The position numbers were made by a program, and so were the translations under genes. A DNA stretch of 62,585 nucleotides, counting the filler, from Collodictyon triciliatum (Eukaryota), in assembly GCA_043381765.1 (NCBI GenBank). It is 8 parts of 8 records of this genome, joined end to end, with 100 filler letters (N's around TTAATTAATTAA, not from the genome) between each part and the next. Parts side by side here need not be neighbours in the genome. Positions count along the whole stretch, not along the records: positions 8,258 to 16,415 come from JBHJMP010003562.1; 7 more parts are not named here. One strand, given 5' to 3'. The notes below the pieces were generated by a model. That model did not search any database and was not told the origin of the DNA. It saw only the letters and a program-made list of their open reading frames with translations. Below are positions 261-57,693 of the stretch, piece by piece (position 1 is the first letter of the stretch; the number at the start of each line of letters is the position of its first letter).

Positions 261-3200
261 ATGACAGCGCTTGGGCTATGCTTGTTGGATGATTTTGGTT
301 CATTGATCGGGCTTGTCACGTACGTATTCCCCACGACATCACTTTTTACTGTTCTTCCAGTGTGTTGTTGGCCATCCCAAAGTGACTTTCACCCCCAAAA
401 TGTTTGGCTCTTTATGTCATTCTAGTTTGATGTTTTTTTTCTTTTTCGTCTATGATACGTTCCGAAAGCTTTCTTTTGTTATCAATTTTGGGCACAACTG
501 AGACCACCACAATCATGATAGAAAGGAAAGCTTCTCTATAAACACAGCCTCAAAGCTCACATTGGATTTCTCATCCTCCATACTGGAACTTCGCAAAGAC
601 GATGCATCTTCAGGGTAAGGAATTACCATAATATTTTCAATTGATATCAATATTCATAATCGGTTTTTTTGGGCAAATCCAATGAAAAGAAATGGAAGCT
701 GTCATCGTCTGCCTACAATAAATCCCCTCCCCTCTTTCTCTTTACTTTTATTTGTTCCATATACTCAACATTTCGTGCATGATTTGGTTAAGTGAAGAAA
801 ATGCTTCTTTTAAAAGAATATTGTGTTCTTAGCTTTCCTCTGAACTTCACTTTGAATCGAATAAAAGAAAAAACGTTCCTCTGAACTTGACATGTATTTT
901 TTTTTTTTTTTTAGGGAATTGCGGAATAAGAGCGCAAACTCCTTCACTGGCGAAATTCCACTAGGGTCTTCTTTCAAGTGCTGCTACTAGCTTTTTGGAG
1001 AGGTTAGAGGAGCATGAAACTCAATACCGCCTATGAATATACTTCTTACATATCATACCAGTATGTAAAACAAGAAAAAAGAGGGGTCTATGAAAGGAGA
1101 TACAAAACCCTTTACCCCTTTCCCTTGAATCTAATAAAGTAATTTTTCCACACCCTTGAGCCCTAGATACAACTGTGAAACCAAACTATTTGCTTCATTT
1201 TCCAGGTCTATGTCATGGCCTTTGGGCTCATAGTTGACCCTCCACTATGTTGCAAGAGAATCGTTGATGCTGGTATTAGGTATTATGATTTTTTTCTCAT
1301 TCACTGTATTATATCCTTCAGTGGATTCAATGTTCAATGAATTACCATTATTGCAATTCAATCAACTGAATACAATACCCTCTCCCCTTTATTCGAATAA
1401 AGGAAAAAAAAAGCTCAAGACACCACATACTCTTTGCACATGCTCTAGTCATGGATATACTCTGTTAGAAACTTTGTTTCTAACTATTCAACATAGACTA
1501 ACCTCCATTATCTAAAGCGCGCTAGGCAATCTCTAAAAACAAGAGGTAACATGCTCCAATATTCAAAAGAGATATGCCGACATCTACTGGGTTTTGGATA
1601 GGATTCTGCAGGAAGAAAAAAATGACTATTCTGTTAAGGTTATTATATATTGTTTAGTTATCTTTTAATCGAATAAAAGAAAAAAAATATATTGTTTAGT
1701 TATCTGTATAATACATTGGTGTTTCTGGCATACTTGGATCATTTTATCATATCGCAATATACATAGTAAATGCATTTACAATTTATTCTCTATTTCAAAT
1801 CAGATGGATGACATTGACCGTATTCGCCTTTGGGCGAATATCAAACATGACTTTGACGGTCGAAACAAAGTGTATGGCTTGATTCTTATTCTTCAACTTT
1901 ATAGAGGCACTCTGTCATACCATGCCATTACATTCTAAGCCAATCAACGAAGCGCCATATAATGACCTTGTAATTTATTTTGTGTTCAATATGCAAAAAA
2001 AAAAATAAAATAAAATAAAATAAAATAAAAAATTGAACTGGATACTTACCAAAATGAAAATTCTGTTTCTGGAAAATAGCTACTCCCAACTAGATACAGT
2101 GGACTTTTTTCTCCCCATGGCAGTTTCCCGCCTCGTTGTCCCCAACACTATCAAACCCATGAGTGAAGCATTCAAGTATGCTTGTCATTTAAATAATTTT
2201 TTTTTCTCCATGGATTATATGCTATTTTATGTATAGAAACCGATAAGACCCTATAAATCATAATGTTGATATTATATAGAAAGCTTACTTCCTTCCTAAA
2301 CCTTATATACAATCATTCACAAAGGTGTGGCGAGGGTAATTTTGGAAATTTGCTTCCGGCACCAATCGCAACCCCTCTGGTGCCAACAGAAGTATCCTTT
2401 TTAGAGCAAGATATGAACGAAGCATCATTTGGGTTTGAAGCCAATTTTGACGATGTTTTTGTTGAGGCACCACTTCAATCAGTCCGAACAATTTCAGAGC
2501 TTATTGGAGAACAAGCAACTGCATTGCCATTTCCATCAAGAAAAGCATCTTTGGCCAGATTTGATATTTCAAAGAATTTACCACACGAAAAAATGACTGA
2601 AACTGAAGCCAAGAAATCACCAACAGAAAAAATTAGCTTGAGGGAGGTGTCATTATCCCCAAAGAACCCATATTCTGATAGAGTCACTCCACTTTCAGTG
2701 ACCACAGCAAAGCAAGAGCAATCAAAACCCAAGGCTATTTCTACTCTTCGAGCGGACTTGTATGGAAATGTGAATATATCGGCATCGCAGGACCCATTCT
2801 CTGAGAAATTTGGCATCCAATCAGGCGGGGACCAAATGCGCTCTGGGAAACAATCAATTGTTGCACCATCCCAAAGGCGTAAAAGTTTGGATCAAGGAGC
2901 ATACTACTCAACTTCAAACCCTGCCGCCCCTCCAAAAACAAGCATCGGAGTTTCACCAAGTTCATTAAAATCAAGAAAGTTTTCTGAAATGCCATTGTCA
3001 CAGCCGTACTCCACATCTCCCTCAACTGCTATGTCATTATTTTCCAATTCTATGCGCAACTCACACTTAGAGCGCACAGAGCCAGTGGCATCCAAAATTG
3101 TAGAAAACAGCGGACTGCAATCAACCAAACAAAACCAAAAGAGTGCGAGTGAAAAGACAAAACCACCCACAACCCCACCTGGGAGCTCGAGTCGAACAGC

Positions 3201-4609
3201 AAGCCGCGCAGGGACAGTGTACACAACACCCTCTCCAAAGACAGACGCGCCACTTCCAAGTCAACAGAGAGCCTCATTTGATTCTGGAACATCGAAAAAG
3301 CCATACCAGTCGTCCTCCAATGTTTTAATAGACGATTTGCTAGGACTAGGAGATTCTTCCTCTCCTGTAGCCATACCATCAAATTCTTCATTCAAGAGTG
3401 CCACTGGGGTGTACGCAGCGGGTAACCAAGATTTATTACTATTCATGGATGATATTGCAACACCCTCAAGCGCCTCAGCACCGATTCCCAGCAATATTTT
3501 GAACCCACAAACCCAATCATTCCATAATACAGTTGATAAATCATCTGATTTCAACTTAAAGTCTTCATCAGACTTACTGAAAGGTGACTCAAAAGATCTG
3601 TTTTCATCTTCATCAACTTCAGTTAACGAGAAGGTAGAGTTTTTATCTATATCTGGGGCAGCACCGCTCAACTCATCTTTTTTGTTTGAGTCAAAGCTGG
3701 GTTCTTTTGATGGCAGTTTCCCGTCGTCTGGAATGAGTACAGGCACTCTTGGGTTTAGTACGGCATTTAAAAACAGTGATGAATTCTCAGCAACACCCAG
3801 CACGCAAACAACTCAACCATTTTCCACATCTTTCCCACAACCCGACCAATTCAACCAGTCAACATCATTGCAAAATTCATTATTTGAGTCCAAATCTCAA
3901 TCGCAAGGGTTTGAGAGTTCGTTTGGTAGCGAATCGAATTCATTGAAGCAAACTAGCACATCATTTTTTGGGACAAGCTCTCAGTCACACTTGTTTGAAT
4001 CAAGTGTTTCGCTATCTTCTCAGTCGAGTTATAGTCACCTCACACACCAGATTGAAGCCTCTCAGATAGGCTCAACCCCAGGAAATCCGAATGTTCCCAC
4101 AGCATATCTTGCATCTCAGATAAGAGTGGCAATATCCGAAACTGTCAATGCAAGTTACGTGGGTGGAAAGTCAGAAAGCTTATCAGTCATGGGTCAAATA
4201 GGATTTTCTTTTCCAAATGTTTCCAAGTACCCCCTCCCAAAGAGCTTTGTTTTCCAAATCAAAGGCTTTGAAAAGTTTGAGTCTGCACAGCCCAACCCAA
4301 CTTTTCTGCAAACCATGGAGAATGGAAAATATCTTTTTACATGCTCAGATTATTCTCGATTCGATCCAGCCAAGCCACTTACCATTATACGCTATAAACT
4401 CAAGCAAGAATATAACCTGGAGATGGTTCGTGTGGCACCAGTATGGAAAAAAGATGCAACCCATTCAAGTGTCATGATTATGTGTGCTATCAACCCCGCT
4501 CTTAAGTTTAACCTTGATGATTTCTCTGTCACTCTAACCTATTCTGGAGATGTCAAGAATGCTATTTTACAGCCCGCAGATGGAGTTTGGAGTAAAGAAG
4601 AAAATAAAG

Positions 4610-4642
<33 letters not shown>

Positions 4643-5085
4643 TTAATTCTCGTCCTAGTTTTTTTTCCGGATTATTCGCTTATCGATATTTCTCATTCTA
4701 ATGATATTTCTAGTTTATTTGTTTAATTAAATGTTAACCTATTTAAATGTTTCATTTTATCCAAACCGGACAGAATGAGCTTACTCTTCTATGGGCCATA
4801 AGACAAACTTTAATTTTTTTTGGGATTACTGTGTTATTCTAATTTTTTAAACTCTAAACACAGGTCACATGGAAAATCCCATCCCTTCAACCAACCACAC
4901 CGAAAACCAAGTTATATGCCCGTATGGACCACACTGGCAACTTCCAGGCCAACCCACTAACAATCAAATTTCATTCTAAGCATCACTTGGTTTCTGATTG
5001 TCTTGTCGAGAGCGAAAATGGAGACACTTTTAGGGTTGGTTTGTCTCAGGTCAACACAGGCAAGTTTGAAGCATCTGGTGCCTAG
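261..5085 (+). CDS. TML: TSET/TPLATE complex subunit TCUP/TML (N-terminal longin-like region, long low-complexity linker, C-terminal muniscin mu-homology domain); multi-exon
   Basis: The 5' exons read MTALGLCLLDDFGSLIGLVT|DFHPQNVWLFMSF...VYVMAFG...KRIVDA...EVTCSNIQKRYADIYWVLDRIL...LDTVDFFLP. This is colinear with the plant TML N-terminus as I recall it (MSCLALAL..WFPP..IYVLG..EVTPEKLGRKYAEVYMALDIVL..FELP). The large exon in ORF 2263..4701 ends in a muniscin MHD (IRVAISETVNA..MGQI..PNP..VAPVWKK..LQPADGVWSKEENK). Donor GT at 4609; last exon 4864-5085 (VTWKIP..TGKFEASGA-TAG). Splicing around 1290-1545 is not resolved. Confidence 0.8.
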
Positions 5086-6359
5086 AAATCCCAAGAAAAC
5101 CGAAAGGGGAGTCGCTGGGGAAATCAAAGCCTCTTTCAGTCCAGTCATCACCAGTCTAAACAAGAACCGAAAAGAAAGAAATACAAAACCACATGATATT
5201 CGAATAAATCAGTCCGCTGACAAAGTTTAAACAGCTTGCCTTCTTTCTCATAATTCAGATATAACATTACATTTTTTTTAATGCGACTTCAAAACAGAAA
5301 TGAAAAAGATGTTGAAGAGAATGTCGATCATGTTTGGATGAAGCTAGCAAATAGCCGTGGAGAGTAAACAAAAGCATGCTATTTCTAGGTTACAAAGGAC
5401 TTACGAGGCCTTATGAATTACCCCATTCAAAGATGATTTTTTTCTTCTCCCCCAGTATTAGCCCCTGTGTGGCCGTGTCCAAACTTGCGATGTAACACAA
5501 AACATTTATAGTCTACCACTCATAAAATATTTTCCCCCTCTTTTCGTAAGATATCTATCACAGCATATTCAACCCCTGCTACTCACGCAGCCAATCAACC
5601 AGTTGGGTCGCCCACCTGACCAACTCGCTATCACTGATTTCTCTCCAGTGCTAGCCTCTCCGCGGTAGTTGCGTCTTCTACTCACGTTTGCTCTCTACCA
5701 TGCGCACCTATCTCGCCCCTTTGTATGGCATAACCTCGCTACACTTTGAATTGATTAAAGAAAAAAATATTTTTTCCTTTTGAAGTGATAAAACCCCCGA
5801 AATACCATTAAGCTACGCTGTGTCTTGTGTTTACCCTCGAAATGGTTAGATGGTTTGCATGGATAGAATGAAACGAGGCAACCCCTAGCCGCAATGAATC
5901 AGAGGTATCAGAGTATTACCGTATATAAAATATAGCACAATTTATACCACTTATTCGCTTTATATGGTAATCATTTCCCCCAATTTTGTGCAGACAGAGA
6001 CATACGTTGAATCACACCCAAATCTGCACAACGCAGGCGATGTCAGAATCAAAAAAAAAATAAATAAATAGCGAGCACTGGGGATGAAGCCAAAAACAAA
6101 AGCAAAAAACAAGGACTTTGTTCAGGGACGAAAGCTCCATATCCAACATGCCATCTCCCAAAGCAATAATCCGCACTGTTGACACCCTAACCCATACAAA
6201 GAATCATACGACTCACATGCGCCCAAAAGCAACTACTCAACCACTTGACTGACACCTTGATACTCTGCTGATGTCCCCGGCAGGTGTCAAGCAGGAGCAA
6301 GAAAACGCCCCGTACTCCAAAAAAGAAAAGAAAAAAAAGGGACTCACTCTTTGCAAAAA

Positions 6360-7790
6360 ATGTTTGAAAAAAGAGACGCCCAAAAGCCATTCACAGACGC
6401 GGACGAGGAGGCTGGCCCATCCACAGGAAAATGGGCTGAGAAGCAACGGGAGACCTCGCCGAAGAAAACGGGCTTGTTCGATGCCTATATCGACTGGGCC
6501 TCAGGACTTTTAGCCAGAAACCAGATCAAGTATCGTCTGCTTTCGCTCCTTATCATGGCTGCAGTGGCCACGTTGCTAGCGATCTACAAGTACAATTTGT
6601 CACTCAACGATGAAAAAAATGCAGCACGTTTATACTTTGCATCAACGGCCCAGTCTGTGGCCAGCTCACTAGAGAGCGAATTCTACGCGGCAGCTCTCTA
6701 TCACAAGATGCTTCTCAACCATATCATCACAAACAAAAAGATACCGACGAAGGACGAATACGCCCAGTTTACAGACCAGAATGTCTTTTGGAACATCACC
6801 AAAGTCATACTTGGGGAGAGCTTGGCTCTGTATGTCACAAATGACACCCGTGCCGCGTACGAGGAGTTCGGCCGTTCTGTCTATGGCCCTTCGTTTCGAT
6901 TGACCGAACGCAACGCTCAAAGCATCCTTGTTGATGCTGCTGATCGCACAGAGTACTATTCTGTCATCTATATCGAGCCTTTCAATACTAACCGGGCCGT
7001 GGTGGGGTTTGATATTTTTAGTGAGCCTCGAAGGGCAGCTGCAATCAACATATCGGTACGCACTGGTTCCATGGTCCCCTCAAATAGAGTCCAGTTGGTT
7101 CAGAGCACCAAGCCAGAGTTTTCCACTATTGCCTTGATTCCGTTCTATCGCATCCCATCTCCTATCCCATCTCCTTACACTGAAATAACTGCAACCACCA
7201 TTCGCGAGTATGTTGCTGCTTTAAAGGCTCGTAACATCCCTCTAAGCTTGGATCTCTATCTTTCTGCCGTGAACTCTGGGAGCTACACTGCAAAACCACT
7301 GCCAGGAGCTGAAACGATGGGTGTCTTATGCGCTGCATGCGTGTACCAGGTCATCCTAGACAATGCCATTAAGGAGATTGATTTGTTTATGGTGGATGTT
7401 ATTCTTTACATCGCCGATGCCCCAGAAGGAGTCCGCTATTTGGCACATCACTCAGGTCCGAGTGATGACCCTTCCTACTTAAAATACACTATGGATGAGT
7501 TACAGGCCTCTGGTCCTGGATCGATTAGCGGAGATATTGTAATCACCCACAACCTTTTATTCGGAATTCGTCCATACCGTCTTGACATCGTCGCGAGAAC
7601 AGGGTTCTTTGAGGCCAAGATGACAGATGTCCCAGTTACACTATTGGTTGTCTCGCTCCTGGGGTCTTTCCTTGGGCAGTTCACAACTATGATAGCTGTT
7701 TGGTACATATTTTATCAGCGAAGGAGAAAGACATCAGCCAAGGATGATGTCGTTCGCGTACAAAACTACTCACCTGACACTCCGCCGTGA
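6360..7790 (+). CDS. Intronless CHASE-domain membrane protein (TM-CHASE-TM, no kinase or cyclase output domain)
   Basis: Uninterrupted ORF. Hydrophobic segment LLSLLIMAAVATLLAIY, CHASE signature RTEYYSVIYIEPFNTNRAVVGFDIFSEPRRAAAINISVRTG..RVQLVQ, second TM VTLLVVSLLGSFLGQFTTMIAVWYIFY followed by QRRRK, then a short tail and TGA. Confidence 0.85.
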   Translation: MFEKRDAQKPFTDADEEAGPSTGKWAEKQRETSPKKTGLFDAYIDWASGLLARNQIKYRLLSLLIMAAVATLLAIYKYNLSLNDEKNAARLYFASTAQSVASSLESEFYAAALYHKMLLNHIITNKKIPTKDEYAQFTDQNVFWNITKVILGESLALYVTNDTRAAYEEFGRSVYGPSFRLTERNAQSILVDAADRTEYYSVIYIEPFNTNRAVVGFDIFSEPRRAAAINISVRTGSMVPSNRVQLVQSTKPEFSTIALIPFYRIPSPIPSPYTEITATTIREYVAALKARNIPLSLDLYLSAVNSGSYTAKPLPGAETMGVLCAACVYQVILDNAIKEIDLFMVDVILYIADAPEGVRYLAHHSGPSDDPSYLKYTMDELQASGPGSISGDIVITHNLLFGIRPYRLDIVARTGFFEAKMTDVPVTLLVVSLLGSFLGQFTTMIAVWYIFYQRRRKTSAKDDVVRVQNYSPDTPP

Positions 7791-8157: not shown

Positions 8158-8257
8158 NNNNNNNNNNNNNNNNNNNNNNNNNNNNNNNNNNNNNNNNNNN
8201 NTTAATTAATTAANNNNNNNNNNNNNNNNNNNNNNNNNNNNNNNNNNNNNNNNNNNN
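8158..8257. other. Artificial contig spacer (44 N + TTAATTAATTAA all-frame stop linker + 44 N)
   Basis: Linker at 8202-8213; the same structure recurs six more times. Confidence 0.98.
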
Positions 8258-13289: not shown

Positions 13290-14893
13290 TTGTTGGACAC
13301 TTCGACCGTCTGCGAGTCTGTCTGATCGGACTGTATTTTTGCACTGGGTCGAGCAAGTCGTTTATAACAAGAACAAGGCCCGCAGGCTCACAGATGCGCT
13401 CGCCTCCTTCTTGAAAGCGAATAAACCTTGGGAAGAGTCCATCCAATTGCGCTTACCGGACAGCGAAGGCCTTTGCCTGATCGCCTTCCGCACTGCAGAA
13501 AACGCCCGAAAGCTTCTGGAACTGAAGAAGGTAAGTTTGAGCGATATTATAATCAGCTTCACCAGAAGTAAACCAACAGACCTCGGTGATGCTCTACCAA
13601 CTACCGCTAGACGTGTGGCCGCAACTCCGTGAGGAGCTGAAGCCGTTCAGACCGACCCATGTAGAGATCAAAAAGGACAAAAGCTTCTTCACAGACACGG
13701 CCGTGGTGAAGCTTCTTTGTCACAAGAACCAGCTCCCTGCAAAGTTTACGGTCATGGGCAAAAAGTTTCCAAAGCGCATCCTCAAAGAGCGTCCGCCAGT
13801 CGCGAACAACGAACGACAAGTAAAAGCCCCGCAAAAGAATGCACCTGCCAAGCACACAAGCAGAAACAGGGTCAAGGAAGCCAAGGCCAGGCAAACAACA
13901 GAGCCCGCAAGATTCACAGCAGATACGCGCATACAGCGACAGCGACGATGACATGGAGGGAAATCTCGGTTCCTCTTCAGAATCATATCACTCGAGCCAT
14001 CATCGCCAACACCGGACAATCCCGCACACCGCAAGACCCAAGAGCAGCGCATCCACATACCTCAAAAGAAATCTCCCTTAAACTACCCATTCAGACTGAC
14101 GTGAATATGGTTAACATAGGAGGCCTCAAGGCAGTCTTTGTTACTTATCCGAAAAGTATACTCCAAATCGAAGGCAACACAAGAGCCAGCGCCCACCAAA
14201 GAAGTCCGTTTCCCCTGCCCCACCCCGTCGCACCAAGAACCAAGAGCAAGAGCAAAAAGCACAAGTCGAATCCAAGCTTGGAACTTCACACACCAAAGAC
14301 AGTTTGAGTAAGCAGGAGCGTATGTTTCTAAAACCACAAACACGTAATCATACTCCGGTTAAGCAAAGTCCACCGCTGGCTACGCATGGTCCCGAAACCA
14401 GGGGACGGTCAAGCACCACTTCCGATATTATCAGGCAAACAACGATGTATCGCTTTTTGTCTGAGTCGCCCAGCAAGAAAGCAAGGAAAGTGACCCGTTG
14501 TCCCCTCAAAAGACTCATCCTGTGGAATGAAATAGGATGTAAACCTTGTCTGGGATATTCGGTTGAATGATACTCGTCGGAATCGGTTTGAGAAGTTACT
14601 GCCACGTGCGTACTTTCATCAACCCGACAACTTTATCCGCTCTTCTGTTAGTCTCGAATACAACCAGAAACCGCGTTGGAGCTTAACCACTTCGGGTAGA
14701 ATAGTCTGCGTGTGAAAGAATACTATCTCTTCTCTATCCTGTTTTTTTCTTTTTTTTCTTTCCTTCTTTTTCTTTCCACCGAAAACACAAAAACCCCAAC
14801 CACACAATCCGGGATTTCCACTTTCTCATTCACATCTCGTTTCTTGTCCAAGAGGCGAAGGCGATTTCCTCGGCATTTCTTTCTCTCAATAAA
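13290..14893 (+). mobile_element. Degenerate ORF1 (gag/RRM-like) unit of an L1/Tx1-like non-LTR retroelement with 3' region ending at AATAAA; probably ORF1-only (HAL1-like)
   Basis: Frameshifted, intronless reading frame LSDRTVFLHW..LCLIAFRTAENARKLLELKKVSL..ISF / VMLYQLPLD..LREELKPF..FFTDTAVVKL..LPAKFTVMG (RRM-like LINE ORF1 pattern), then a basic/Ser-rich tail ending TGA at 14528-14530. 14365-14893 is repeated, diverged, at 24772-25288. The 5' boundary is uncertain. Confidence 0.65.
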
Positions 14894-14916
14894 CAGTCAA
14901 TTGTAAACATAAAACC

Positions 14917-15569
14917 AATAGGGAGCTATGGATAGGCACACGCGCGGCAAAAGCTGGCAAAGTCACCCAACAATGCACACTTTGCAGCAACAGTGATGAA
15001 TTCATCGAGCACACATTTGTGCAATGTCCCTTCGCTCAAAACCTGCGCGAAACAGCCGGCGAGATTCTTCGACTGACACTCAAGACGGCTGCGGCTGTTG
15101 GCCCAATCCAGGCGATATTTTTGCCTCTGCAACAGCTGCGTCCAGATGCAAAAACATTCTGGGCAGTGATACGAGGCCATTTGCTATGGACTATGCGTAT
15201 AGCGCGCATATACTCACGCAAAGCAAGACTCAACAACCAGCCACTCATTCCTGATAACAGGCTGAATGACATCATACAAATCTCTTTCCTCAACAGCTTC
15301 CTTAGCCACCTGCACGTTCTCTAATAATCAGACCCTGTGAGAAGAGACATGTGGAAATGAGCTGAGAAGGATATTAAACCTCGCCCTTGTATCTCTCATG
15401 CAAGCACAAGACCCAGGCTATTGGCCAAACCGCAGGATGCAATTCCTGATTACCGACTACTTCTCCGCCACCCGGCCCCCAAGTAGCGTCCATGCAAACG
15501 ATGGCTAGCGAACCAAACCCAGCATCTCCACCATCCTGCACAAAATTGAAAGGAAGAATAAAAAAAAAA
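14917..15569 (+). mobile_element. 5'-truncated L1/Tx1-like LINE: ORF2 C-terminus (zf-RVT), short 3' UTR and poly(A)
   Basis: RELWIGTR..QCTLCSNSDEFIEHTFVQCPFAQ is the CxxC..E..H....C zinc knuckle typical of L1-clade ORF2, followed by FWAVIRGHLLWTMRIAR. Ends GAAGAAT(A)n at 15560-15569. The 3' part recurs at 37143, 37624, 40964 and 53918. Confidence 0.8.
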
Positions 15570-15622: not shown

Positions 15623-16248
15623 TTATAAGTCGTGTTCAGGTTTGCGCCCCGCAGCCGGGTCCTCCGCAGCCGGCAAGTGTATCCCGACCGCCCCAAGGGC
15701 ATCGCGAACCCACTCGGGGTACGTATGGCCGGGGTGAATCCTTGCGAGGGTCTCTGCCACAAACTCCTTGAATCTGCCGTCCACAATGGCCGCGCGGATC
15801 TGGCGCATGAGCAGAAAGTGATGCGCAAGATTGTGGTACGTCAGCAGGCGCGTCGCAATAGACCCGGTGTGGTGGGCATCCGGCCCGGAAGCAAGCATGG
15901 CGTGGAGCGAGGCGCGGGTGTACTGCGCGCACACTGTGCAGATGCAGTGCGCATCGAGAGGCCTCAGGTCGGCCTTGAAGTCGGCCTTGCCCAAGGACAG
16001 GAGGCCCTCGCGCACAATGGCCGTGCCGAATCGTGCCGTGCGGCACGGGTAGACGCAGTCGAACATGTCCACGCCCAGGGCCACGCACACGAGCAGGTCC
16101 ACGGTGTAGCCGACGCCCATGAGGTAGCGCGGCAGGTGGGGCGGCAGGCGCTGCGTGCAGCGGAAGACCGTTCTCCAGAATGCATCCTTGGCCTCTCCTC
16201 CCGATAGCCCGCCGATGGCCAGGCCCAGTGGCCGCCGAGCAACAATCC
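15623..16248 (-). CDS. QTRT1: Queuine tRNA-ribosyltransferase catalytic subunit, last exon (5' part lost at contig end)
   Basis: AIGGLSGGEAKDAFW..PRYLMGVGYTVDLLVCVALGVDMFDCVYPCRTARFG..HCICTVC..YTRASLH..LLTYHNLA; acceptor AG at 16249-16250. Confidence 0.95.
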
Positions 16249-16311
16249 CTGCGTTGTGGGGAGGGCTGGTTACTCACCCGGCCGGTTTTGGTGGATGTCT
16301 TTTTTTTTGTT

Positions 16312-16415
16312 TTTTTGTGTTTTATGTGTTTTATGTGTTTTATGTGTTTTATGTGTTTTATGTGTTTTATGTGTTTTATGTGTTTTATGTGTTTTATGTG
16401 TTTTATGTGTTTTAT
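16312..16415. repeat. (TGTGTTTTA)n tandem repeat in a QTRT1 intron, at contig end
   Basis: Direct inspection. Confidence 0.95.
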
Positions 16416-16515
16416 NNNNNNNNNNNNNNNNNNNNNNNNNNNNNNNNNNNNNNNNNNNNTTAATTAATTAANNNNNNNNNNNNNNNNNNNNNNNNNNNNN
16501 NNNNNNNNNNNNNNN
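16416..16515. other. Artificial contig spacer
   Basis: 44 N + TTAATTAATTAA (16460-16471) + 44 N. Confidence 0.98.
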
Positions 16516-17424: not shown

Positions 17425-18727
17425 CTAAAAAGTCTCCTCCACTTCGCCGTCGTTGACGTTGTCGTTGGCGTTGTCGTTGTCATCTCCATCGCGTCCGGTG
17501 TCCTTCTCTTCAACACCTTCGCCGTCCTCTTCGGCCCCATCCGCCTTATCAAGCATGGCCAGCAGTAGCTCTTCGTTTTCATTCCGCAGCACTTCGAGCA
17601 GGTCGCGTTTCTCTTGCAGTTCCGCGGACAGCATCCTCACCGATTCCTCCATCGACTAGAGAACGAGTCCAAGAAAACACACCGACGAAAGTCGCGCATT
17701 AATCGGGTTGACACATCCCTCGAACAAACACGCAAGATAAAGTAAAACAAAGTAAAACAAAGTAAAACAAAGTAAAACAAAGTAAAACAAAGTAAAACAA
17801 AGTAAAACAAAGTAAAACAAAGTAAAACAAAGTAAAACAAAGTAAAACAAAGTAAAACAAAGTAAAACAAAGTAAAACAAAGTAAAACAAAGTAAAACAA
17901 AGTAAAACGAAGTAAAACAGCAGCATCAATATGCCGCGTTAGCATCGGCCTATCGCTTGATACAAATATTGTCCAGCACAAAAAAGGTTACCAGAATGGA
18001 AGCCTCATCCGCTGTGTTTCCCTCGACTTTTTGGAGCTGTGACTTGCATCCCAGGAGCCTTTGGTGGAGCTCTTCAACCTGATGTAGACCCAAAACACAT
18101 TCATGAGGCATAAACGACACAAACACAACCCAATTGTTGTCAAAGATATTCCCGAAAAAGCCGAAAACAAAATGTTTTTTTTTTCAATCACTGTGTATTT
18201 TACTCTCTGCGCAGCCTTTTCCTCCGACTCCTTTGATTCGCTTAATATCTCCTCCAACCGAGCATTTGTAGCCACCATAGCGGACATTTCTTTGCTCAGC
18301 TAAGGTTTAATATCTCCTTTATTTAATCTTTCTGAAGAAAAGAAATATATGAAACATGATTTTTTTTTTATTAGCCAAGACCTACTGTTTTATTTTGGTA
18401 TACTGCTTTTTTTCTTTTATAAAAAAAAAACCTGTTCAATGGTAATTTCATAATCCTCCAACTTAAAAGTATCACGCTTCTCCTGCAGTCGCGCAATCTC
18501 AGCCTCAATCACCATGCATGTTTCCGCCTCGTCAAGAAGTTGCTGTTTCAAACGCTCCATATCTTGATGGCTCACACCTCTTTGAGGCTTGAGCTGCTCT
18601 GATACCGAAACTTTTTGTCGCAGTTCATTCAGCTCTCGGTCCTACACAGCCCAAATAAAAACAGAAAATATCGTGTTCTTGACTAACTCAGAAATAAATA
18701 ACATGCCAATAAACCATTGTTAAGTAA

Positions 18728-18775: not shown

Positions 18776-21700
18776 AACGAATTACCACAGTGTTGTTGCG
18801 AGCATAAATACCATTTACCTGACTCTGTATAATGTCGCTGTATGAGCGAACCATGCCTGCTAAAGTAGAGTCTTCCGACGCCAAAGAGACACCTTGCGGA
18901 ACGTGGGTTCTCAGAGTTTGTCGCATCTCCTGTAATTTCCTCCTCACACGTTCTGTACTCACCAAAAGTAATAATTAATTTTTGAAAAAAATCATGAAAA
19001 AGAAAAGGTATCTGATGAAAAATGTCTTTGGATGGAACAGCGGCGTCTATATATGTATATGTGTGTACTTTTAATCCATCTTACCATATAGCTGTTTCGA
19101 GGCAACAACAAACGAGAGTGCAAATATCTCATATATACCGACAGATTCCACTCGGAAATTCGTCCGCCTCTGTGTGGTGGGCATTCAACATTAAATAATA
19201 AGCGTGCTTCATCACACAGCGCATCTTGTTCAGAGTGGATCAAAAATCATACCTTGGCATTTTCAAATGCGCCACTACGACAAAGATTATCTAGACTCTC
19301 GTAAAAGATTTCAAGTCCGATTTTATTGTCTATGATTTCCATCACTGACCGACTGACAGTTTGGAAACGGTCAGCGTTAGGCAACGGGTAGGATAGTATT
19401 AAAATATTTTAATTGTTTCCTTTAATTCCAATAATACCATAGCGAAGTATCCACGCACGAAGGTTAAAAGAAAACTAAAATTTTATTCCTTGTGGCAGTA
19501 TATCCGGATGTTTTCGAATCATGTGAGTTGTTCCCGCTCAAGGTACAACAATAAGAGATTTGTCATACCTGCAGGTGTCTGACGTCTCCGGTGCATCATT
19601 TGCATCCATCAATATGGCTAGTAACAGGCAACTTAGTCCTGAAATGTAATCAGTAAAATTGCCTACATGTTCGCTCGATTCAGGTTTCTTGACCGACAGT
19701 CGTACAAGGTCCATGCACTTAATACATGGGTATGAATTTTAAAATTAGATAATATTCTTACTTTGGGTTTATTTACACACATCGGAACAATATACTAGTT
19801 GTAATCACCATAATACCGTACACGGGCAAGGGCTATGCAATATTTAATGAATGAGATGATACCTTGCCAATATTTACTGGTGTTTGAAGGAAGCTTGCAA
19901 TAGCATTTGGACATTGTATCATCCATGCACAAAGCACGATGAACATGTTGATAATTCTGATTTCCTCAGGAGACATCATACTACCATATTGTAAATGTTC
20001 TTCTGTCATCTAGAGATGTATCAGTCAATTAAAGTCTGTACCATACATGAATGAAATTTAAAGNNNNNNNNNNNNNNNNNNNNNNNNNNNNNNNNNNNNN
20101 NNNNNNNNNNNNNNNNNNNNNNNNNNNNNNNNNNNNNNNNNNNNNNNNNNNNNNNNNNNNNNNNNNNNNNNNNNNNNNNNNNNNNNNNNNNNNNNNNNNN
20201 NNNNNNNNNNNNNNNNNNNNNNNNNNNNNNNNNNNNNNNNNNNNNNNNNNNNNNNNNNNNNNNNNNNNNNNNNNNNNNNNNNNNNNNNNNNNNNCTGAGC
20301 TCGAGCTCCAAAGAGCTTTGGTTAGATGGTTCATGTATGGCTTTGAGTGTAAGGTTTTGGCTGTAAAAATTAACATTGTTTTTAGAAGTATTTCTTTCAT
20401 TTTCACCCCATTACGTACTTATCGTGGATAAAAAACATTGAAAAGAAATCAACGATATGTAACATGATTTTTTTCTCATCAAAACCGATACATATATACT
20501 AAATACTGCATGATAGAGATATTGTCTTCTCTAATTTCTTACAAGATAGTTTAAGGCGCAGGAGCATTTCCTTAACATCTGGATTATTTGTGCACATCCA
20601 CCCAAATATACCAGATGAATACCTAAGTTTTGATAAATTCATATGGAATGAGCTGAGATATATCCCCTCCATTCTTCTTTTTACATATCTATTTACCAGA
20701 AAAAAATACAACGCTTTTAAAGTTATCAGGATTATAGTGATTATAACCATGGATGAAGTGGGTGATTTGATTCAGTCACGCCAAACAGCAAGCGCTCCCC
20801 AGCACTCAAAGCCGCTGTCTTCTTTGCTGTTTTTTTTTTTTAAAGAGGTAAAAACACAAATTTACCTATCATAATGTTTGGTAATAGCTCTGTGATAGAA
20901 TATTGACATACACATAGTAGCATGTCCCAAATAAGCTGTCATCAATGATGCCATCATCGATAGCTGGTTTTCAGGATTATCGACCAAAAATACCTGAGAA
21001 AACAATCAAGCGAATACAAAAATTAATCTGAATTTATATATAGCTACTTATTCATTTACAAAATTTGAGCATTTACTATATGAGAAATGGCTTTGGTTGA
21101 GTTTTTAACCAACCTCAAATATATCCAAAATGCATGCACATTCTTCAATACTATTTGAATTGAAGAGAATATCCAAGAGCTGCATAGGGGATTCTACACT
21201 TTCATCATTCTGTAAAATTGCGTGATAGGACCGAAGAGCTGCTTGATTTGGAGAGTGCCCTTTGATTATGATGGCGATGCAGTTGAGGCACTTTTTTTTT
21301 TTCAGCCATCCATGATACACCACGAGAATAGTTTGCGTTAATACGGGAAAGGATAACACATATATTTGGGCAATGTAACACTAATTTGCAGTGTCGGGTT
21401 CTCACCTTAATGCGAAATTGTGGATTTTCATATGGCGAGAGTGCAAGATGAAGAATTTTGGTCACAATATCGTTCTTTTTTATCTGATCCTGTTTTCCAA
21501 TTAAAAAGTTAAGGGGAAACAAACAAACAAACAAACAAACAAACAAACAAACAAACAAACAAACAAACAAACAAACAAACAAACAAACAAACAAACAAAC
21601 AAACAAACAAACAAAAGTATGACTCGTCAATCTTCAAAACCATCTTACAAAAATAATAGTAAAAATGATGTGATAGCCAGTTGCGTAGACACTTATATTA

Positions 21701-23864
21701 AGTTATATATAAATTAACTTATGTTAATCGAAAACATTAAAGTCCACCTGAACAGGTACCGGGGTTGGCTGGGATTGTATAGTCAATATTTCTAGTAGAT
21801 TGAATATGACAGATAGAATGTTGACCTATTTTGAATGATGCCTTAGAATACTGTCCGCATATTTATGGTTGTCATTAATATGTCAATACTTTATCCAAAA
21901 AGAGAAAAAAACTAGAAGTGCATACCTTATTTTCTGAAAAATCGTGAATATTATTTGGGGTTTGTAACAAATTGGCGATATTTTTAAAATATCCCATTTC
22001 TCTAAAGTATTTCTAATAATTAAATACAAATTAAGATAGATAAAATAAAAATTGAGCATTCAAAGAGATATTTAGAATCTCTTTGTAAAGCAATTAATTA
22101 CATTTCATGACCATGATTATAAAAATTTAGATAGTTCATCACCTGATTGTTCGAATTATCTCTCAACATATTGGTCATCAAGACTAACGTATCTACTACG
22201 ACAATCCCTCCATCTAAGCCACTTATGTATTTGTATGTCATGTCAACATTATTTTTTTATAAGAAATATCATCAACTGATGCCTTGTAATATACCCCCAT
22301 ACAAATAGGAGAAACAACTACATACCCTTCCGAGGTAATGATTCTAATCAAATGGTCAATTACACCATTGAAAACAACTATTTTCTGAATCTCCTCATTT
22401 TGGTCCGTAAGTGATGTAACAAGTAAAAGAAGATCTGCAGTTGGAACATATAACGAAAAAGAAAACAAATTTTAAAAAAGATGATCCATGAATGGATTCA
22501 GCCGCCACCTCTGAAAAGATATATTGAAAGTACGTATATTGTACCATCTACCATTTCTGATGACCTCGTTTCGGTCATTTAGTGCATCGACGAGACGAAC
22601 CACGCCTTGGAGGGATTTCATGATAGTTTCCTGAACAAGTTCTTTGTTTCCTTCCAACAAACTTCTCAGTATTTGAATTACGTTATACTTGACGTGGAAA
22701 TCTCTTAGCTCGAGCAAATTGAGGAGGGCATTAATCACTCCGACATCCTATGTTGATAAAAGTGAAGATCATATTTTATACTAATATTATGCTGCCGGGT
22801 TTCTCTTTCTCTCGCTACTCTGATAGTATATTGATATAAGAATAATCTCAAACGTAGAAAACAAGCGATATGTGGGTGAATATATACATACAAAATCAAA
22901 TATGTAAACATATTGGTGAACCTTTGATAAATCTTTGGAGTTGATTGTGTAGTAATGAAGCATATCCTTGTGGGCCTTAATTGGTCAATGCAAAAAACAT
23001 AAAATAAAACAAGTTCGTCAGATCGAAGCAGAGGAAGGAAGCTTGTGCGGAGGTTTTCACACAAAATTGGGGAAGGCAGAAATAAGTGCCCAATACCGGA
23101 TTTGTGGGGCGGCTTATGAATATCATGAGCATCTCAAGAATGGGATTGATAAAGTTGGGCATCGTTTCCCCGGAAAGGAGAATGTCAATCAGCACAGGCA
23201 GGGACGCGTCTACAAAGTTCTTTAGACGAGAGACAGACGTATTTCAATACACAGAACACATGGCAAGACATACAGAGAAGCAAAATGGAAGCTTGATGCA
23301 TAGAGAAGGATCGTGAGGGAGAAAAAGGAAGTGAGAAGACGGAAATGAATCAGAGAAAGAGAGGGAGGGAAAAGAAAAAAAGAGCAGAGAAAGGGAAGGG
23401 AAGGGAAAAGAAAAGCGAACCTGCTGGACAAGCAGTTGGGCGGCCTCGTGGAGATTGGCCAAGGCGGATCCGCGTTCGTCGGGGCGTCTGCAGGCAGCGA
23501 TTGCGGCAACGACTCTGTCGCTCAGGGGCGTCTGCGGAGTCGTGTAAACGCGGGGCGGCGCCGGAGATCGGGGCTGCGGCTGAGCGACGAATGAGCGCGG
23601 CAGTGCGGGAGACGCAGACACAGACGGAGACGGAGACGGAGACGGAGACGGAGACAGAGTTGCAGAGGCAGAGGCAGAGGCAGAGGCAGACGGGGCCGAG
23701 TGTGGGCGATCGCTGCTGCGCGGAGAGAGAAGTGTGCCGAGCGTTGCAGAGAGGGCGCCCGAGGCGTACGAGGCGAGGTCACCGGCCGGGGCGGACGCGG
23801 GTGTTTGGCCGGGGCTGTGCTGCGGTTCGGGCAGCGGCGCAAGCAGGTTGGCCAGGAAGTTCAT
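17425..23864 (-). CDS. USO1: General vesicular transport factor p115/USO1; multi-exon, spans a 231-N scaffold gap
   Basis: Starts MNFL. Armadillo head motifs LLNLLELRDFHVKYNVIQIL..GVVRLVDALNDRNEVIRN|DLLLLVTSLTDQNEEIQKIVVFNG..IITSEG|GLDGGIVV..NMLRDNSNNQ|KYFREMG, coiled-coil exons, and C-terminal ENEELLLAMLD plus acidic tail. Confidence 0.9.
17738..17918. repeat. (AAAGTAAAAC)n in the last USO1 intron
   Basis: Direct inspection. Confidence 0.95.
20064..20294. other. Intra-scaffold N gap (no linker) inside USO1
   Basis: Run of 231 N without TTAATTAATTAA. Confidence 0.95.
21517..21613. repeat. (AAAC)n intronic microsatellite
   Basis: Direct inspection; the same motif occurs at 25626-25727. Confidence 0.95.
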
Positions 23865-24129
23865 TGCCCTGAGAGGGAGCGAAGGGGGTGGAAGGTGGGT
23901 TGGGGAATGGAAACAGCAACGGGAGCGGAAAGGGGCAGGAGAGTCCAAAGAGCAGAGGGAATGAGGCCAACGAGCAATGCCGCTGCCTGATTCACAGCGG
24001 CCTTGTCGTCGCAAACAGCGCACGCCGCGTCTCTCTGATCGCTGCTGCCTTGCCTTGCCTTGCCTTGCCTTGCCTTGCCTTGCCTTGCCTGTTTGCCAAC
24101 GCCGCAGCCCCTCCACAGAGCCCGGACGC

Positions 24130-24360
24130 ATGCGGCGCCGCCTGTCGCTCGTGCCCGACCTTCCTCCCGACGCGGCTGCCACGCTCCTCGGCCGTCCGCC
24201 CCGGCTCCGCGCTCTGGCGTGCTTTGCGCTCAGCTCGCACCCCGAACCCTGGTCGCTGCCCCGCTGTGCATGCCTCCTGCTGCTCGAGGCTGCTGCCCGC
24301 GTGGCCCTCGGCCTGGCCTTCCTGTCCCACCTGCTCCGTGGCCTGCTGTCCTGGCTGGCT
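24130..24360 (+). CDS. Possible first exon of an unknown (membrane?) gene divergent from USO1
   Basis: ATG at 24130, 77 open codons ending in hydrophobic ARVALGLAFLSHLLRGLLSWLA, then canonical donor GTGAGT at 24361; the rest is lost at the contig end. Confidence 0.35.
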
Positions 24361-24374
24361 GTGAGTGGGGCGCA

Positions 24375-24671
24375 CATATCCACATATCCACACATCCACA
24401 CATCCACATATCCACACACATCCACACATCCACACATATCCACACATCCACACATCCACATATCCACACACATCCACACATCCACACATCCACACATCCA
24501 CACATCCACACATCCACACATCCACACATCCACACATCCACACACCCACACATCCACACATATCCACACATCCACACACCCACATATCCACACACATCCA
24601 CACATCCACACATCCACACATCCACACATCCACACATCCACACATCCACACATCCACACATCCACACATCC
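24375..24671. repeat. (CACATCCA)n-type tandem repeat at contig end
   Basis: Direct inspection. Confidence 0.95.
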
Positions 24672-24771
24672 NNNNNNNNNNNNNNNNNNNNNNNNNNNNN
24701 NNNNNNNNNNNNNNNTTAATTAATTAANNNNNNNNNNNNNNNNNNNNNNNNNNNNNNNNNNNNNNNNNNNN
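24672..24771. other. Artificial contig spacer
   Basis: 44 N + TTAATTAATTAA (24716-24727) + 44 N. Confidence 0.98.
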
Positions 24772-25288
24772 AAAGTCCACTGCCGGCTACGCATGGTCCC
24801 GATGCCAGGGGACGGTCAAGCGCCACTTCCGATAATTCCAGACAAACAACGATGTATCGCTTTTTGTCTGAGTCACCCAGCAAGAAACGCAAGGAAAGTG
24901 GCCTGTTGTCTCCTCAAAAGACTCATCCAGTGGAATGAAATAGGATGTAAACCTTGTCTGAGATAGGCGGTTGAAAGGACTCGTCGGAATCGATTTTCGA
25001 AGTAACTGTCATGTGTACTTTCATCGACCCGACAACTTCATCCGCTCTTCTGTCAGTCTCGAATACCACCAGAAACCGCGTTGGAGCTGAACCACCTCGG
25101 GCAGAATAGTCTGCGCATGAGAACACTTTCTCTCCTTTCTATCTTGCTTTATCTTTTTCTTTCTTTTCACCCAAAACACAAAAACTCCAACCACACAATC
25201 CGGGGTTTTACTCACTGTCTTGTCCACAGCTCATTTTTGTCCTAGAGTCGAAAGGTGGTTTCCTCGGCTTTGTTTTCTCTCAATAAAA
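24772..25288 (+). mobile_element. Second copy of the ORF1-unit 3' end (ORF1 C-terminus to TGA 24936-24938, then 3' region to AATAAA)
   Basis: Colinear diverged match to 14365-14893. Open frame SPLPATHGPDARGRSSATSDNSRQTTMYRFLSESPSKKRKESGLLSPQKTHPVE*. Similarity stops at TTCTCTCAATAAA; an A-run follows at 25306-25317. Confidence 0.8.
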
Positions 25289-32927: not shown

Positions 32928-33027
32928 NNNNNNNNNNNNNNNNNNNNNNNNNNNNNNNNNNNNNNNNNNNNTTAATTAATTAANNNNNNNNNNNNNNNNN
33001 NNNNNNNNNNNNNNNNNNNNNNNNNNN
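32928..33027. other. Artificial contig spacer
   Basis: 44 N + TTAATTAATTAA + 44 N. Confidence 0.98.
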
Positions 33028-36100: not shown

Positions 36101-37142
36101 ATTTTTAATTAAAATTGATTCGACTTTATGCAAGCTGTATTATATTTGGTAAATAGGCAACGTTTTCAAATTAAATAAAGTCTCCTTGCCACAAAGAAGG
36201 ATGCATGACTCTTGATTACAAAAATTTACAACGAATATTATTCTATTTATTTTTGGTCATGAATGACTGGACAAAGACATACCTCCTTCCACACAAAACA
36301 CACCCAACACCCCCACCGTACGTTCTTAGACCTTTACTTCAGACCATCGGGAAAAAATAGGAGCCGCCAATCCACCACCCCTCCCCTTCCTCCAAGTAGT
36401 AGATCGAAACAGTTCCCTTTCCCACGGATTTTGTCTATTGTCCCTTCCAATTGCAACTGTATCTGAGTTTTGTCCATGACTTTAGTTTGAACCTTTACTA
36501 ATTAAAGATGAAAAATTAATGCTTGGTATCATAGATTAAATAAAATAATGTGATTTTTGAGCTAGTCCATGAAGTTGTCAGATTGAACCATTTATCAAAA
36601 CGAGACCTAAATTAGGAATGAAGTTTGATTGACAATCTGCTAAAAATTAGGCTTTACACATGTACTTAAAATGTGCGTATTTGGTTTTTCTACCGTTGAA
36701 TATCAAACATGTGACGAATTTTCTGTGATACAAATTTTAATTTTTTCGCGCTTTTCACTTATGAAGAGAATTAGAAGGTAAAATTAGACAAGAATCATAC
36801 TGTTTTACTATCAGATTCTTGGTCAATCTGGCGCAAAGATTGCACTATTCTTTGTAATGCCCTCAAAGTTTTAATTATGAGTTTCTTTAATTATTATAAA
36901 AAAATTAGATTAATGGAACTTGAAACCTTGAAATAAATTTCCTCTCGATGCTATGAATTGGCTCGGTCAACATATTGTATGACTTGTTTATCACCAAAAA
37001 AATGAGAGCTCCAGAGTTCCTTGTACGATGAAATGGAATGACAGATGGGCCCTTTCTGAAAGTTCATGAAGTGCTATTAAAAATGTTTTTTTGAGTTCAT
37101 CCTGAGAAATAATCAAGATATTTAAATAGTTGAAAATTTTGT

Positions 37143-37325
37143 CCTGGTCTTCCTCATGCAAGCACAAGACCCAGACTACAGACCAAACTGCAGGATGCAA
37201 TTCCTGATTACCGACTACTTCTCCGCCACCCAGCCACCAAGTAGCGTCCATGCAAACGATGGCTAGCGAACCAAAGCCAACATCTCCACCGTTCTGCACA
37301 AAATGGAATGGAAGAATAAAAAAAA
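37143..37325 (+). mobile_element. 5'-truncated LINE 3' end with poly(A) and degenerate ~19-bp TSD
   Basis: Matches 15395-15569. Flanked by aaatagttgaaaattttgt (37124-37142) and aaaaggtcgaaaattttgt (37322-37340). Confidence 0.85.
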
Positions 37326-37623
37326 GGTCGAAAATTTTGTATTAATCATATAGATATTTTTCGTTTCATTGAAACCCCCTTTAATATCGTTGAAATTAAC
37401 TCATGATTGATTTTTTCCAACTTGGCTATTTTTAATTTCATACATTATTCACTATTATCTACGCCTTATGAAAAGTAAAGGTAAAAATTAACTAAGATAG
37501 CAAGGTATCAGAATCTACCGTTTATTTGGAATCATAAAAAAACATTTAGAGAAATTCCCAAAAGTGTGTCATACCTGAATCTGGTTGATTAAAGTATGAT
37601 TTTGAGATTCAAAGAGTCAAGTT

Positions 37624-40963: not shown

Positions 40964-41183
40964 TTTATTTTTCTTTGCGTGTGGCGATGGAGTTCCTGTC
41001 TCTAAGGTGCCAGCCATCGTTTGCACTAACGCTACCTGGTGGCCGGGTGGCGGAAGTAGTCGGTAATCAGCAATTGCATCCTGCGGTTTGGCCTGTAGCC
41101 TGGGTCTTGTGCTTGCATGAGAGATACAAGGCGAGGTTTAATATCTTTCTCAGCTTCTTTCCACATGTCTCTTCTCACAGGGT
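40964..41183 (-). mobile_element. LINE ORF2 C-terminal copy cut by the contig end; different 3' tail (subfamily)
   Basis: Reverse complement matches 15332-15505; open frame PVRRDMWKEAEKDIKPRLVSLMQAQDPGYRPNRRMQLLITDYF. Confidence 0.85.
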
Positions 41184-41283
41184 NNNNNNNNNNNNNNNNN
41201 NNNNNNNNNNNNNNNNNNNNNNNNNNNTTAATTAATTAANNNNNNNNNNNNNNNNNNNNNNNNNNNNNNNNNNNNNNNNNNNN
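41184..41283. other. Artificial contig spacer
   Basis: 44 N + TTAATTAATTAA + 44 N. Confidence 0.98.
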
Positions 41284-48814: not shown

Positions 48815-48919
48815 GAGAGAAGAGAGGGAAGGAAAGTATAATATGGAGTGTATGAATGAGCTTCATTTTACTTTATATTTTACCTTCTTTATTTAGAGTT
48901 ATATTTTATAGTAGTATAT

Positions 48920-49075
48920 ATCATTTTAATTCATTACATTTTAATTCATTATATTTTAATTCACTTTATTTTAATTCACTTTATTTTAATTCACTATATT
49001 TTAATTCACTTTATTTTAATTCGCTTTATATTAATTCACTTTATTTTAGTTCACTTTATTTTAATTTACTTTTAT
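48920..49075. repeat. 15-bp minisatellite (TATTTTAATTCACTT)n upstream of the C2 gene
   Basis: Direct inspection; imperfect units. Confidence 0.9.

Positions 49076-57642: not shown

Positions 57643-57693
<51 letters not shown>
57477..57693. repeat. (GTTTT)n grading to poly(T) at contig end
   Basis: Direct inspection. Confidence 0.95.

Follow-up and report, generated by a model that had tools for sequence, protein, structure and literature searches.

Does the reverse transcriptase (RT) protein of a retrotransposon family in Collodictyon triciliatum end where its reading frame first meets a stop codon, or does it continue through what looks like a 3' untranslated region (UTR) into a peptide that binds PCNA? 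The question is raised by a decayed copy of a non-long-terminal-repeat (non-LTR) retrotransposon, a long interspersed nuclear element (LINE), in a stretch of 62,585 nucleotides (nt), filler included, from assembly GCA_043381765.1; this whole stretch is called the window here. The zinc-knuckle frame of this copy runs into two adjacent stop codons, and the repeated sequence behind them encodes a PCNA-interacting protein (PIP) box. In an earlier reading, made from the sequence only, this apparent UTR was held to be the coding end of the RT protein (open reading frame 2, ORF2) and its peptide to be a complete PIP degron. The results described below show that the apparent UTR is coding in other copies of the family, and the box at its end is likely a functional PCNA-binding one; a degron is doubtful.

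The repeat occurs three times in the window, and the copies were named 15k, 37k and 41k after their positions (Table 1). As the sequence-only reading had stated, all three share one frame and carry the motif in it. Positions 15332-15509 were 91.6% identical to 41183-41009 over 178 nt, and positions 15395-15567 were 92.5% identical to 37153-37325 over 173 nt. The location given earlier for the 37k copy was correct and its end was not, since 37266 is the end of the TAG codon and the copy reaches the poly(A) at 37325. When 14929-15561 of the 15k copy was translated in the zinc-knuckle frame, the product read ...HLHVL, two stops, SDPVRRDMWK, a stop and AEKDIKPR, and the next frame gave LVSLMQAQDPGYWPNRRMQFLITDYFSATRPPSSVHANDG followed by a stop. 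The 41k copy was open in a single frame (PVRRDMWKEAEKDIKPRLVSLMQAQDPGYRPNRRMQLLITDYF...). The TAA TAA, the TGA facing GAA in the 41k copy and the 1-nt insertion, all described earlier for the 15k copy, were confirmed by translation, and the extra base was absent from the 41k copy.

To extend the comparison beyond the window, Logan contigs of four metagenome runs were placed on positions 14900-15560 at a likeness of at least 80%, which gave 122 pieces. Three of the runs were of DNA (X1, X2 and X7), and one was a poly(A) RNA library (X15, a metatranscriptome). The LINE family was present in all four runs compared; freshwater, lake and subsurface metagenome runs shared at most 0.22 of the sampled words, and none shared half or more. 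A stop at 15322-15327 in other copies, the outcome that the sequence-only reading had named as speaking against itself, was looked for and not found. With the four runs summed, position 15324 was C instead of A in 10 contigs (depth share 0.84) and position 15327 was C instead of A in 13 contigs (depth share 0.98), so both codons were TAC. The TGA was undone by T>G at 15358 in 12 contigs (depth share 0.95) and by G>A at 15359 in 13 contigs (depth share 1.00). One base of the C run at 15384 was missing in 6 contigs, which accounted for 10.3 of 10.3 depth in X1, 15.4 of 15.4 in X7 and 12 of 26.5 in X2; in X2, three single contigs had other small indels near this position. Contigs from X15 covered 14921-15385 and 15496-15557 and left 15406-15474 uncovered; contigs cannot show transcription.

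Related proteins were found by a profile search of 1.84 billion representatives (5 matches) and by a profile word search (13 matches), and with cluster members they amounted to 26 proteins. Ten of them (P0001, P0005, P0008, P0009, P0010, P0013, P0014, P0017, P0019 and P0021) ended or shifted frame before the motif. The 16 that reached the motif in frame were aligned with the three window pieces (alignment A7, 19 sequences). Besides proteins of the same family as the window copies, the set contained a diverged family B (P0006, P0007, P0011 and P0022-P0026), a lineage C (P0004) and a most distant lineage (P0012). P0015 (427 aa) and P0018 (201 aa), which with others are cluster mates of P0002 and P0001, were open from upstream of the zinc knuckle via ...YYSDPVRR... 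to QFLITDYFSATRPPSSVHANDG and then stopped; their C-terminal stretch was ...RMQFLITDYFSATRPPSSVHANDG, and their final residues were ...SSVHANDG. P0002 read through the false-stop site (...HLHVLYYSDPVRRDMWKEAEKDIKPRLVSLMQAQDLGYRPNRRMQFLITDFSATRQ), and P0016 and P0020, too, were uninterrupted through YYSDPVRR. P0016 ended in ...SSVSANND, and P0020 was frameshifted, but only after the box.

The columns of the false stops held YY or RY in P0002, P0015, P0016, P0018, P0020, P0004, P0006, P0007 and P0011. In family B and lineage C these columns were R-Y, and the frame stayed open for about 55 residues more. Alignments of P0004, P0006, P0007 and P0012 to the window by tblastn crossed the window stops and reached 15354-15375. 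Because the frame was open in contigs, in proteins of the same family and in diverged lineages, the stops and the frameshift of the 15k copy are private damage. Therefore, judged from these sequences, the RT protein does not end at 15322; intact copies are predicted to run about 60 codons further, to the TAG that is the true stop. The 15k copy, truncated and dead, carries private mutations that make its tail look like a 3' UTR. The earlier claim that the apparent UTR is coding and that the RT protein ends in ...NDG thus agrees with the open frames of P0015 and P0018 and with the contigs that lack the stops.

Table 1. Coordinates of the three LINE copies in the window and of their parts
Feature	Positions	Strand	Remarks
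15k copy	14914-15569	+	Decayed, 5'-truncated non-LTR retrotransposon: 3' end of RT-protein gene, short 3' UTR, poly(A)
zf-RVT / CCHC zinc knuckle, recognised part of C-terminal domain	14929-15321	+	Pfam PF13966, E 1.4e-6, 29.3 bits (cut-off 27.5)
TAA TAA, false stops private to 15k copy	15322-15327	+	TAC TAC (Tyr-Tyr) in other copies
True last ~59 codons of RT protein	15328-15505	+	Last helix of C-terminal domain, variable linker, PIP box, short tail; two frames in 15k copy
TGA, private stop of 15k copy	15358-15360	+	GAA (Glu) in other copies, including 41k copy
CCC run with private 1-nt insertion, frame shifted	15384-15386	+	Extra C missing from 41k copy and contigs
PIP box Q-F-L-I-T-D-Y-F	15440-15463	+	Six-frame motif scan; conserved in alignment A7
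S-A-T-R, four residues after box	15464-15475	+	+4 arginine codon at 15473-15475
TAG, true stop of RT-protein gene	15506-15508	+	P0015/P0018 end ...NDG and P0003 ...KNG at the same place
Real 3' UTR, ~50 nt, with AATAAA and poly(A)	15509-15569	+	AATAAA 15557-15562; A10 run 15560-15569
37k copy, 187 nt, 5'-truncated, tail only	37143-37329	+	PIP box 37198-37221; TAG 37264-37266; poly(A) 37318-37325
Different 3' end of 41k subfamily	40975-41008	-	TGG at stop position; beyond it unrelated to 15k 3' UTR
41k copy, tail-coding part, cut by linker at 41184	41009-41183	-	PIP box Q-L-L-I-T-D-Y-F 41053-41076, then 2-nt deletion

The position of the tail behind two stop codons in the window copy would also be expected if it were ordinary 3' UTR, with the frame and the motif present by chance or with conservation at the RNA level for recognition of the 3' end by the RT, and RNA-level conservation of LINE 3' ends is possible. 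The variation between copies is of another kind. Besides the two variants undoing the TGA, 11 variants were listed for 15328-15505, and 8 of these 11 were synonymous changes at the third codon position (15330, 15336, 15360 on the GAA background, 15369, 15372, 15391, 15421 and 15478). The variants at 15361, 15376 and 15422 changed a residue, and none of the variants listed lay within 15423-15477, which encodes PNRRMQFLITDYFSATRP. The 15k and 41k copies had about 10 differences before the stop (about 94% alike); after it, 17 of some 30 aligned positions differed. Since their likeness collapses past the stop, the 41k copy represents a subfamily with another 3' end. This alternative end recurred as a loose end at 15506 in run X2. 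The 41k copy is itself frameshifted by the deletion just after its PIP box. With the frame of this second subfamily, which has TGG for TAG, corrected, its protein would be about 15 codons longer and would enter a basic stretch before a TAA.

Chance and RNA structure were considered separately. A six-frame scan of the whole window for Q..[ILM]TD[FY][FY] gave 3 matches, against a mean of 0.01 in 100 shuffles, and the full pattern with K or R at +4 occurred once in the window, in the 15k copy, and in none of 100 shuffles. The RNA fold of 15328-15550 was ordinary (z -0.89; 32 of 200 shuffles folded as well), so an explanation by RNA structure is unsupported, and searches for RNA explanations gave 0 matches in Rfam and 0 genes in the tRNA scan. 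Against an ordinary UTR stand, therefore, the frame that is open in natural copies and diverged lineages, the bias of the variants to the third codon position, the rarity of the motif in shuffled windows, the unremarkable fold and the end of subfamily similarity at the stop codon. It is very improbable that the tail is an ordinary 3' UTR.

The conservation of the box itself was examined in alignment A7. Among its 19 sequences, Q1 was present in 19, I4 in 18, T5 in 18, D6 in 16, an aromatic residue at position 7 in 17 and F8 in 19, and positions x2 (F, T, L, S or N) and x3 (L, V, A or F) varied freely. The canonical PIP consensus Q-x-x-[ILM]-x-x-[FY]-[FY] was found in all three window copies and in 13 of the 16 in-frame database proteins. 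Two diverged sister lineages retained Q-x-x-I-T-[DN]-[FY]-F, about 7-14 residues before the C-terminus. Between P0015 and family B, 39-46 of 114-116 residues were identical in the domain core and 10-11 of 28 in the last helix. The 11-residue linker between this helix and the box was identical at 0 of 11 positions to family B and P0012 and at 2 of 11 to P0004. The 8-residue box of P0015 was identical at 5 of 8 positions to that of four family-B members, and the differences were confined to x2, x3 and the exchange of Y and F. Functional short linear motifs are usually marked by such a contrast between a conserved box and a scrambled linker, and the earlier claim that the Q-x-x-I-T-D-[FY]-F box has been kept as such across diverged lineages is upheld by this pattern. 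Further relatives were sought in metagenome contigs, where a protein pattern scan matched 303 stretches with zero relatives among them and the exact 27-nt pattern gave 0 matches, and in viral contigs scanned with P0007, where 11 pattern matches included zero relatives.

An AlphaFold2 model of P0007 was built from a 15-sequence alignment. In the model, a helical core is folded at residues 172-322, and the R-Y pair matching the false stops of the window corresponds to residues 290-291. The helix at 294-317, downstream of this pair, is confident (79-92 by the predicted local distance difference test, pLDDT); thus, the segment behind the stops would supply an integral helix of the domain. In the tail that follows (residues 323-345), the pLDDT is below 50; the box is at 329-336, and a short helix is predicted at 328-335. 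With low pLDDT taken as a proxy, the PIP box would lie in an exposed or disordered terminal context. The tail would then consist of the last helix of an L1-like C-terminal domain, a fast-evolving and probably disordered linker of about 11 residues, the PIP box, 9-14 further residues and the stop.

The model was compared with 48,161 representative PDB chains. The top match was human LINE-1 (L1) ORF2p from a target-primed reverse transcription (TPRT) complex (9hdo_A; Z 9.8, root-mean-square deviation 3.9 A, 167 aligned residues, 10% identity), in which residues 142-327 of the model were aligned with 1096-1268 of the chain. Foldseek against the PDB gave zero matches at E<=0.001, and a sequence search of the PDB with the A3 profile gave only unrelated proteins (E 0.34 and 1.5). 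The match to 9hdo_A fits an L1-like C-terminal domain in the modelled protein, short of proof.

The identity of the element was also studied from the anatomy of its insertions. The 37k copy, 187 nt long, has a poly(A) and lies between two identical 11-bp sequences, GAAAATTTTGT (37132-37142 and 37330-37340), which form a target-site duplication. Such an arrangement is that of 5'-truncated insertions arising by TPRT. Thus, the 37k copy has all three hallmarks of a non-LTR insertion, and the 15k copy has two of them, 5' truncation and poly(A); a target-site duplication of at least 7 bp was sought in the flanks of the 15k copy, and none was found. Alignments of P0001, P0004 and P0008 to the window by tblastn begin at 14914, and contigs of other copies continue upstream of this position, where they are unlike the window sequence. 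The 15k copy therefore starts abruptly at 14914, and by tblastn the other parts of the element are absent from the window. The zf-RVT domain was precomputed on P0001, P0004, P0006-P0010 and P0012. The longest relative is P0015, and no window copy or database protein extends to the RT or endonuclease region.

A 530-nt segment just upstream of the 15k copy (14365-14893) is repeated at 24772-25287 with 84% identity. The LINE fragment is missing from this paralogue, and the sequence that follows is only loosely like the 3' flank of the 15k copy; the segment could be an empty site that has since diverged, or else an older repeat.

How the box could act is suggested by its type. It is of the canonical, high-affinity kind Q-x-x-I-T-D-[FY]-F, and it probably serves the RT protein as an exposed C-terminal docking peptide for DNA-loaded PCNA, either at forks or on the integration intermediate. 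The box would bring the RT protein and its RNA-protein particle to DNA-loaded PCNA at replication forks; alternatively, docking might take place at the nicked target during TPRT. The role would be that of PCNA binding in human L1, but it would be played by a separately placed, exposed peptide, as at the end of the pogo transposase. The PIP box of pogo is C-terminal. In the p21 frame, the pogo box QKKITDYF is reported to bind human PCNA with a dissociation constant (KD) of 8.82 nM, and high PCNA affinity is associated there with the T5-D6 pair found in p21 and pogo (PMC8191301). A pogo-ligase peptide is listed among the strongest competitors in Table 1 of PMC4103810. Transposable-element enzymes described as binding sliding clamps include those of pogo, Tigger and Lemi1, bacterial transposases (beta clamp) and human L1 ORF2p (PMC5371812). 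For human L1, it is reported that retrotransposition needs PCNA binding and is highest in S phase and that the complex is bound to chromatin (PMC5821460). The L1 PIP box is described as internal (407-415, or helix 404-419), between endonuclease and RT, and packs on palm and fingers (PMC10830420).

A conserved C-terminal peptide might instead serve a partner other than PCNA, or fold back onto the RT protein itself or onto its RNA. Rev1- or Mlh1-type FF-binding sites are possible other partners of PIP-like motifs. The human protein offers a precedent of a kind, since its canonical PIP box is described as a structural helix touching palm and fingers (PMC10830420) and PCNA is reported as predicted and tested to bind elsewhere in L1 (PMC7617806). 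In the present family, by comparison, the six defining positions of the box are all retained while the two x positions are free. The box stands behind the scrambled linker in a tail that is predicted not to be packed on the core, and it has I-T-D-Y-F in common with the pogo box, for which nanomolar binding to PCNA in the p21 frame is proven (PMC8191301). A function through such another contact is accordingly improbable, and docking on PCNA is preferred.

Several points weigh against docking through a conserved C-terminal box of a LINE protein. The role of the canonical PIP box in L1 is itself disputed, PCNA being placed at a non-canonical "PUB" site in the wrist domain (PMC7617806, 2025). The most distant lineage, represented by one Logan protein (P0012), has a degenerate Q-N-F-P-S-Q-Y-F with Pro at position 4, and three other in-frame proteins have damaged boxes (P0002 without the Y, P0025 with L at position 7 and P0020 with TN). 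Outside the variant listing lie 45 less well supported differences, so the absence of variants from the box holds for the listed ones. The model of P0007 is weak overall (mean pLDDT 52), residues 1-171 are unreliable, and low pLDDT is a proxy for disorder. An unrelated helical prenyltransferase scored Z 9.1, within 1 Z of 9hdo_A, and Z 9.8 is below the caution line for helical models. The LINE clade and the name "ORF2" rest on zf-RVT, on this helical match and on the insertion anatomy. In addition, all relatives come from short metagenome contigs of 570-2129 nt.

The sequence-only reading had gone further and had claimed a PIP degron. By the definition in PMC8871960, such a degron combines a PIP box, T5-D6 and a basic residue at +4, and a basic residue at +3 is described there as also important in human cells. 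If the tail were complete in this sense, the RT protein tethered to DNA-loaded PCNA on chromatin would be ubiquitylated by CRL4-Cdt2 and destroyed there, a single-use RT. The protein would thereby be limited to S phase or to repair sites, or removed after one round of TPRT. The box, the TD pair and a basic +4 residue, which together make up the definition of PMC8871960, were found in 8 of the 16 in-frame database proteins and in the 15k copy. The TD pair was replaced by TN in P0004 and P0020 and by SQ in P0012. An R at +4 was present in 11 of the 16 in-frame database proteins and in one of the three window copies (15k); the others had L, Q, H, H or P, and P0012 was without it. R at +4 was in the majority in family A (...SATR) and in family B (...AV[PSI]R), despite the difference in the three preceding residues (SAT vs AVP, AVS or AVI), and the exceptions Q, L and H were single substitutions in single copies.

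Other observations do not fit a degron. The +3 residue was never basic, being T, P, S, I or L in 19 of 19 sequences, and in P0004 (lineage C) D is replaced by N and the +4 residue is P, while P0012 has neither TD nor a basic +4 residue. TD and flanking basic residues are also reported to raise plain PCNA affinity (PMC8191301), and these features therefore do not discriminate between a plain PIP box and a degron. Destroying its own enzyme is, besides, not obviously advantageous to the element. Of the degron claim, the TD pair and the +4 arginine stand as a consensus in two lineages, and the basic +3 residue and the generality of D and +4 across lineages do not. A genuine CRL4-Cdt2 degron at the end of the RT protein is consequently considered unlikely.

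The family was compared with known systems. Like human L1 ORF2p, its best structural match, it has a non-LTR RT protein with a CCHC-bearing helical C-terminal domain. Unlike the internal PIP box of L1, a packed helix, the box is found at the very end of the protein, after a variable linker and within a low-confidence tail, and it is of the TD type with R at +4. Pogo, Tigger and Lemi1 also encode transposable-element enzymes with a canonical PIP box, and I-T-D-Y-F is shared by QKKITDYF and QFLITDYF (PMC5371812, PMC8191301, PMC4103810). Pogo is a DNA transposon with a DDE transposase and no reverse transcriptase; thus, the likeness of its box to that of the LINE would be convergent, and PMC5371812 calls it unclear whether the pogo motif is functionally relevant. 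The PIP degrons of Cdt1, p21 and Set8 have in common with the present tail a PIP box, T5-D6, a basic +4 residue and a disordered terminal region (PMC8871960), and the tail differs in having no basic +3 residue and in not keeping +4 in all lineages. Cdt1, p21 and Set8 are cell-cycle regulators, whereas the carrier here is the enzyme of a selfish element.

In the full-text literature searched, whose coverage leaves out most subscription journals and supplements, no C-terminal PIP box or PIP degron was reported in a retrotransposon protein. The retrotransposon papers listed on PCNA or PIP concern, by title, human or mammalian L1, and those listed on PIP degrons concern other topics (cell-cycle reporters, genome editing and replication). 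What appears to be new here is the coupling of a LINE to PCNA by a peptide of another type in another position; the coupling itself is already known in L1.

The remainder of the window was surveyed as well. It contains seven identical linkers (N44, TTAATTAATTAA, N44) at 8158-8257, 16416-16515, 24672-24771, 32928-33027, 41184-41283, 49439-49538 and 57694-57793, spaced by about 8256 nt. It is thus joined from pieces about 8.16 kb long, and sequences on either side of a linker may come from separate places in the genome. A plain gap of 231 N occurs once, at 20064-20294, and long A- or T-rich simple repeats border most linkers. Long microsatellite or minisatellite arrays were found at 1-177, 17732-17911, 24355-24694, 48878-49100, 52278-52380 and 57479-57690, with units of 8 nt (AAAAAGAC), 10 nt (GTAAAACAAA) and 15 nt (ATTTTAATTCACTTT-like) and the units ATTGT and TTTTG.

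Two uninterrupted open reading frames (ORFs) on the plus strand matched known domains. The one at 6261-7790 (509 aa) contains a CHASE sensor domain (PF03924, E 5.4e-22), and the one at 2257-4701 (814 aa) contains a muniscin mu-homology domain (PF10291, E 6.6e-22). CHASE domains are not known from animals, and the ORF with this domain speaks against an animal host. Directly after the poly(A) of the 15k copy, on the opposite strand, lies a GC-rich open frame of about 259 aa (15636-16415, minus strand), which has no Pfam match and is cut by the linker at 16416. Another open frame, of 491 aa (23244-24719, minus strand), matched no Pfam family; long ORFs overlap there on both strands, which suggests skewed composition and not several genes.

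For human L1, PCNA is described as required, and the site on ORF2p is disputed between a buried PIP helix (PMC10830420) and a wrist site (PMC7617806). The present LINE family appears to solve clamp binding plainly, by an exposed C-terminal PIP box of the high-affinity type, which the lineages have kept while all residues next to it have changed. It would thus provide independent evolutionary evidence that LINEs in general need to bind the clamp, and a system at the level of a peptide for testing the role of PCNA in TPRT. A parallel is found in the pogo transposases and in the beta-clamp-binding transposases of bacteria (PMC5371812). For annotation, the locus is a caution that a decayed copy can disguise real coding sequence as 3' UTR. 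Since two lineages keep TD and the +4 arginine, cell-cycle-coupled destruction of a transposon enzyme is directly testable in this family. Should this doubtful possibility prove true, removal of the RT would hand the integration intermediate to host repair and confine retrotransposition to S phase, and the protein would be the first degron-controlled enzyme of a transposable element.

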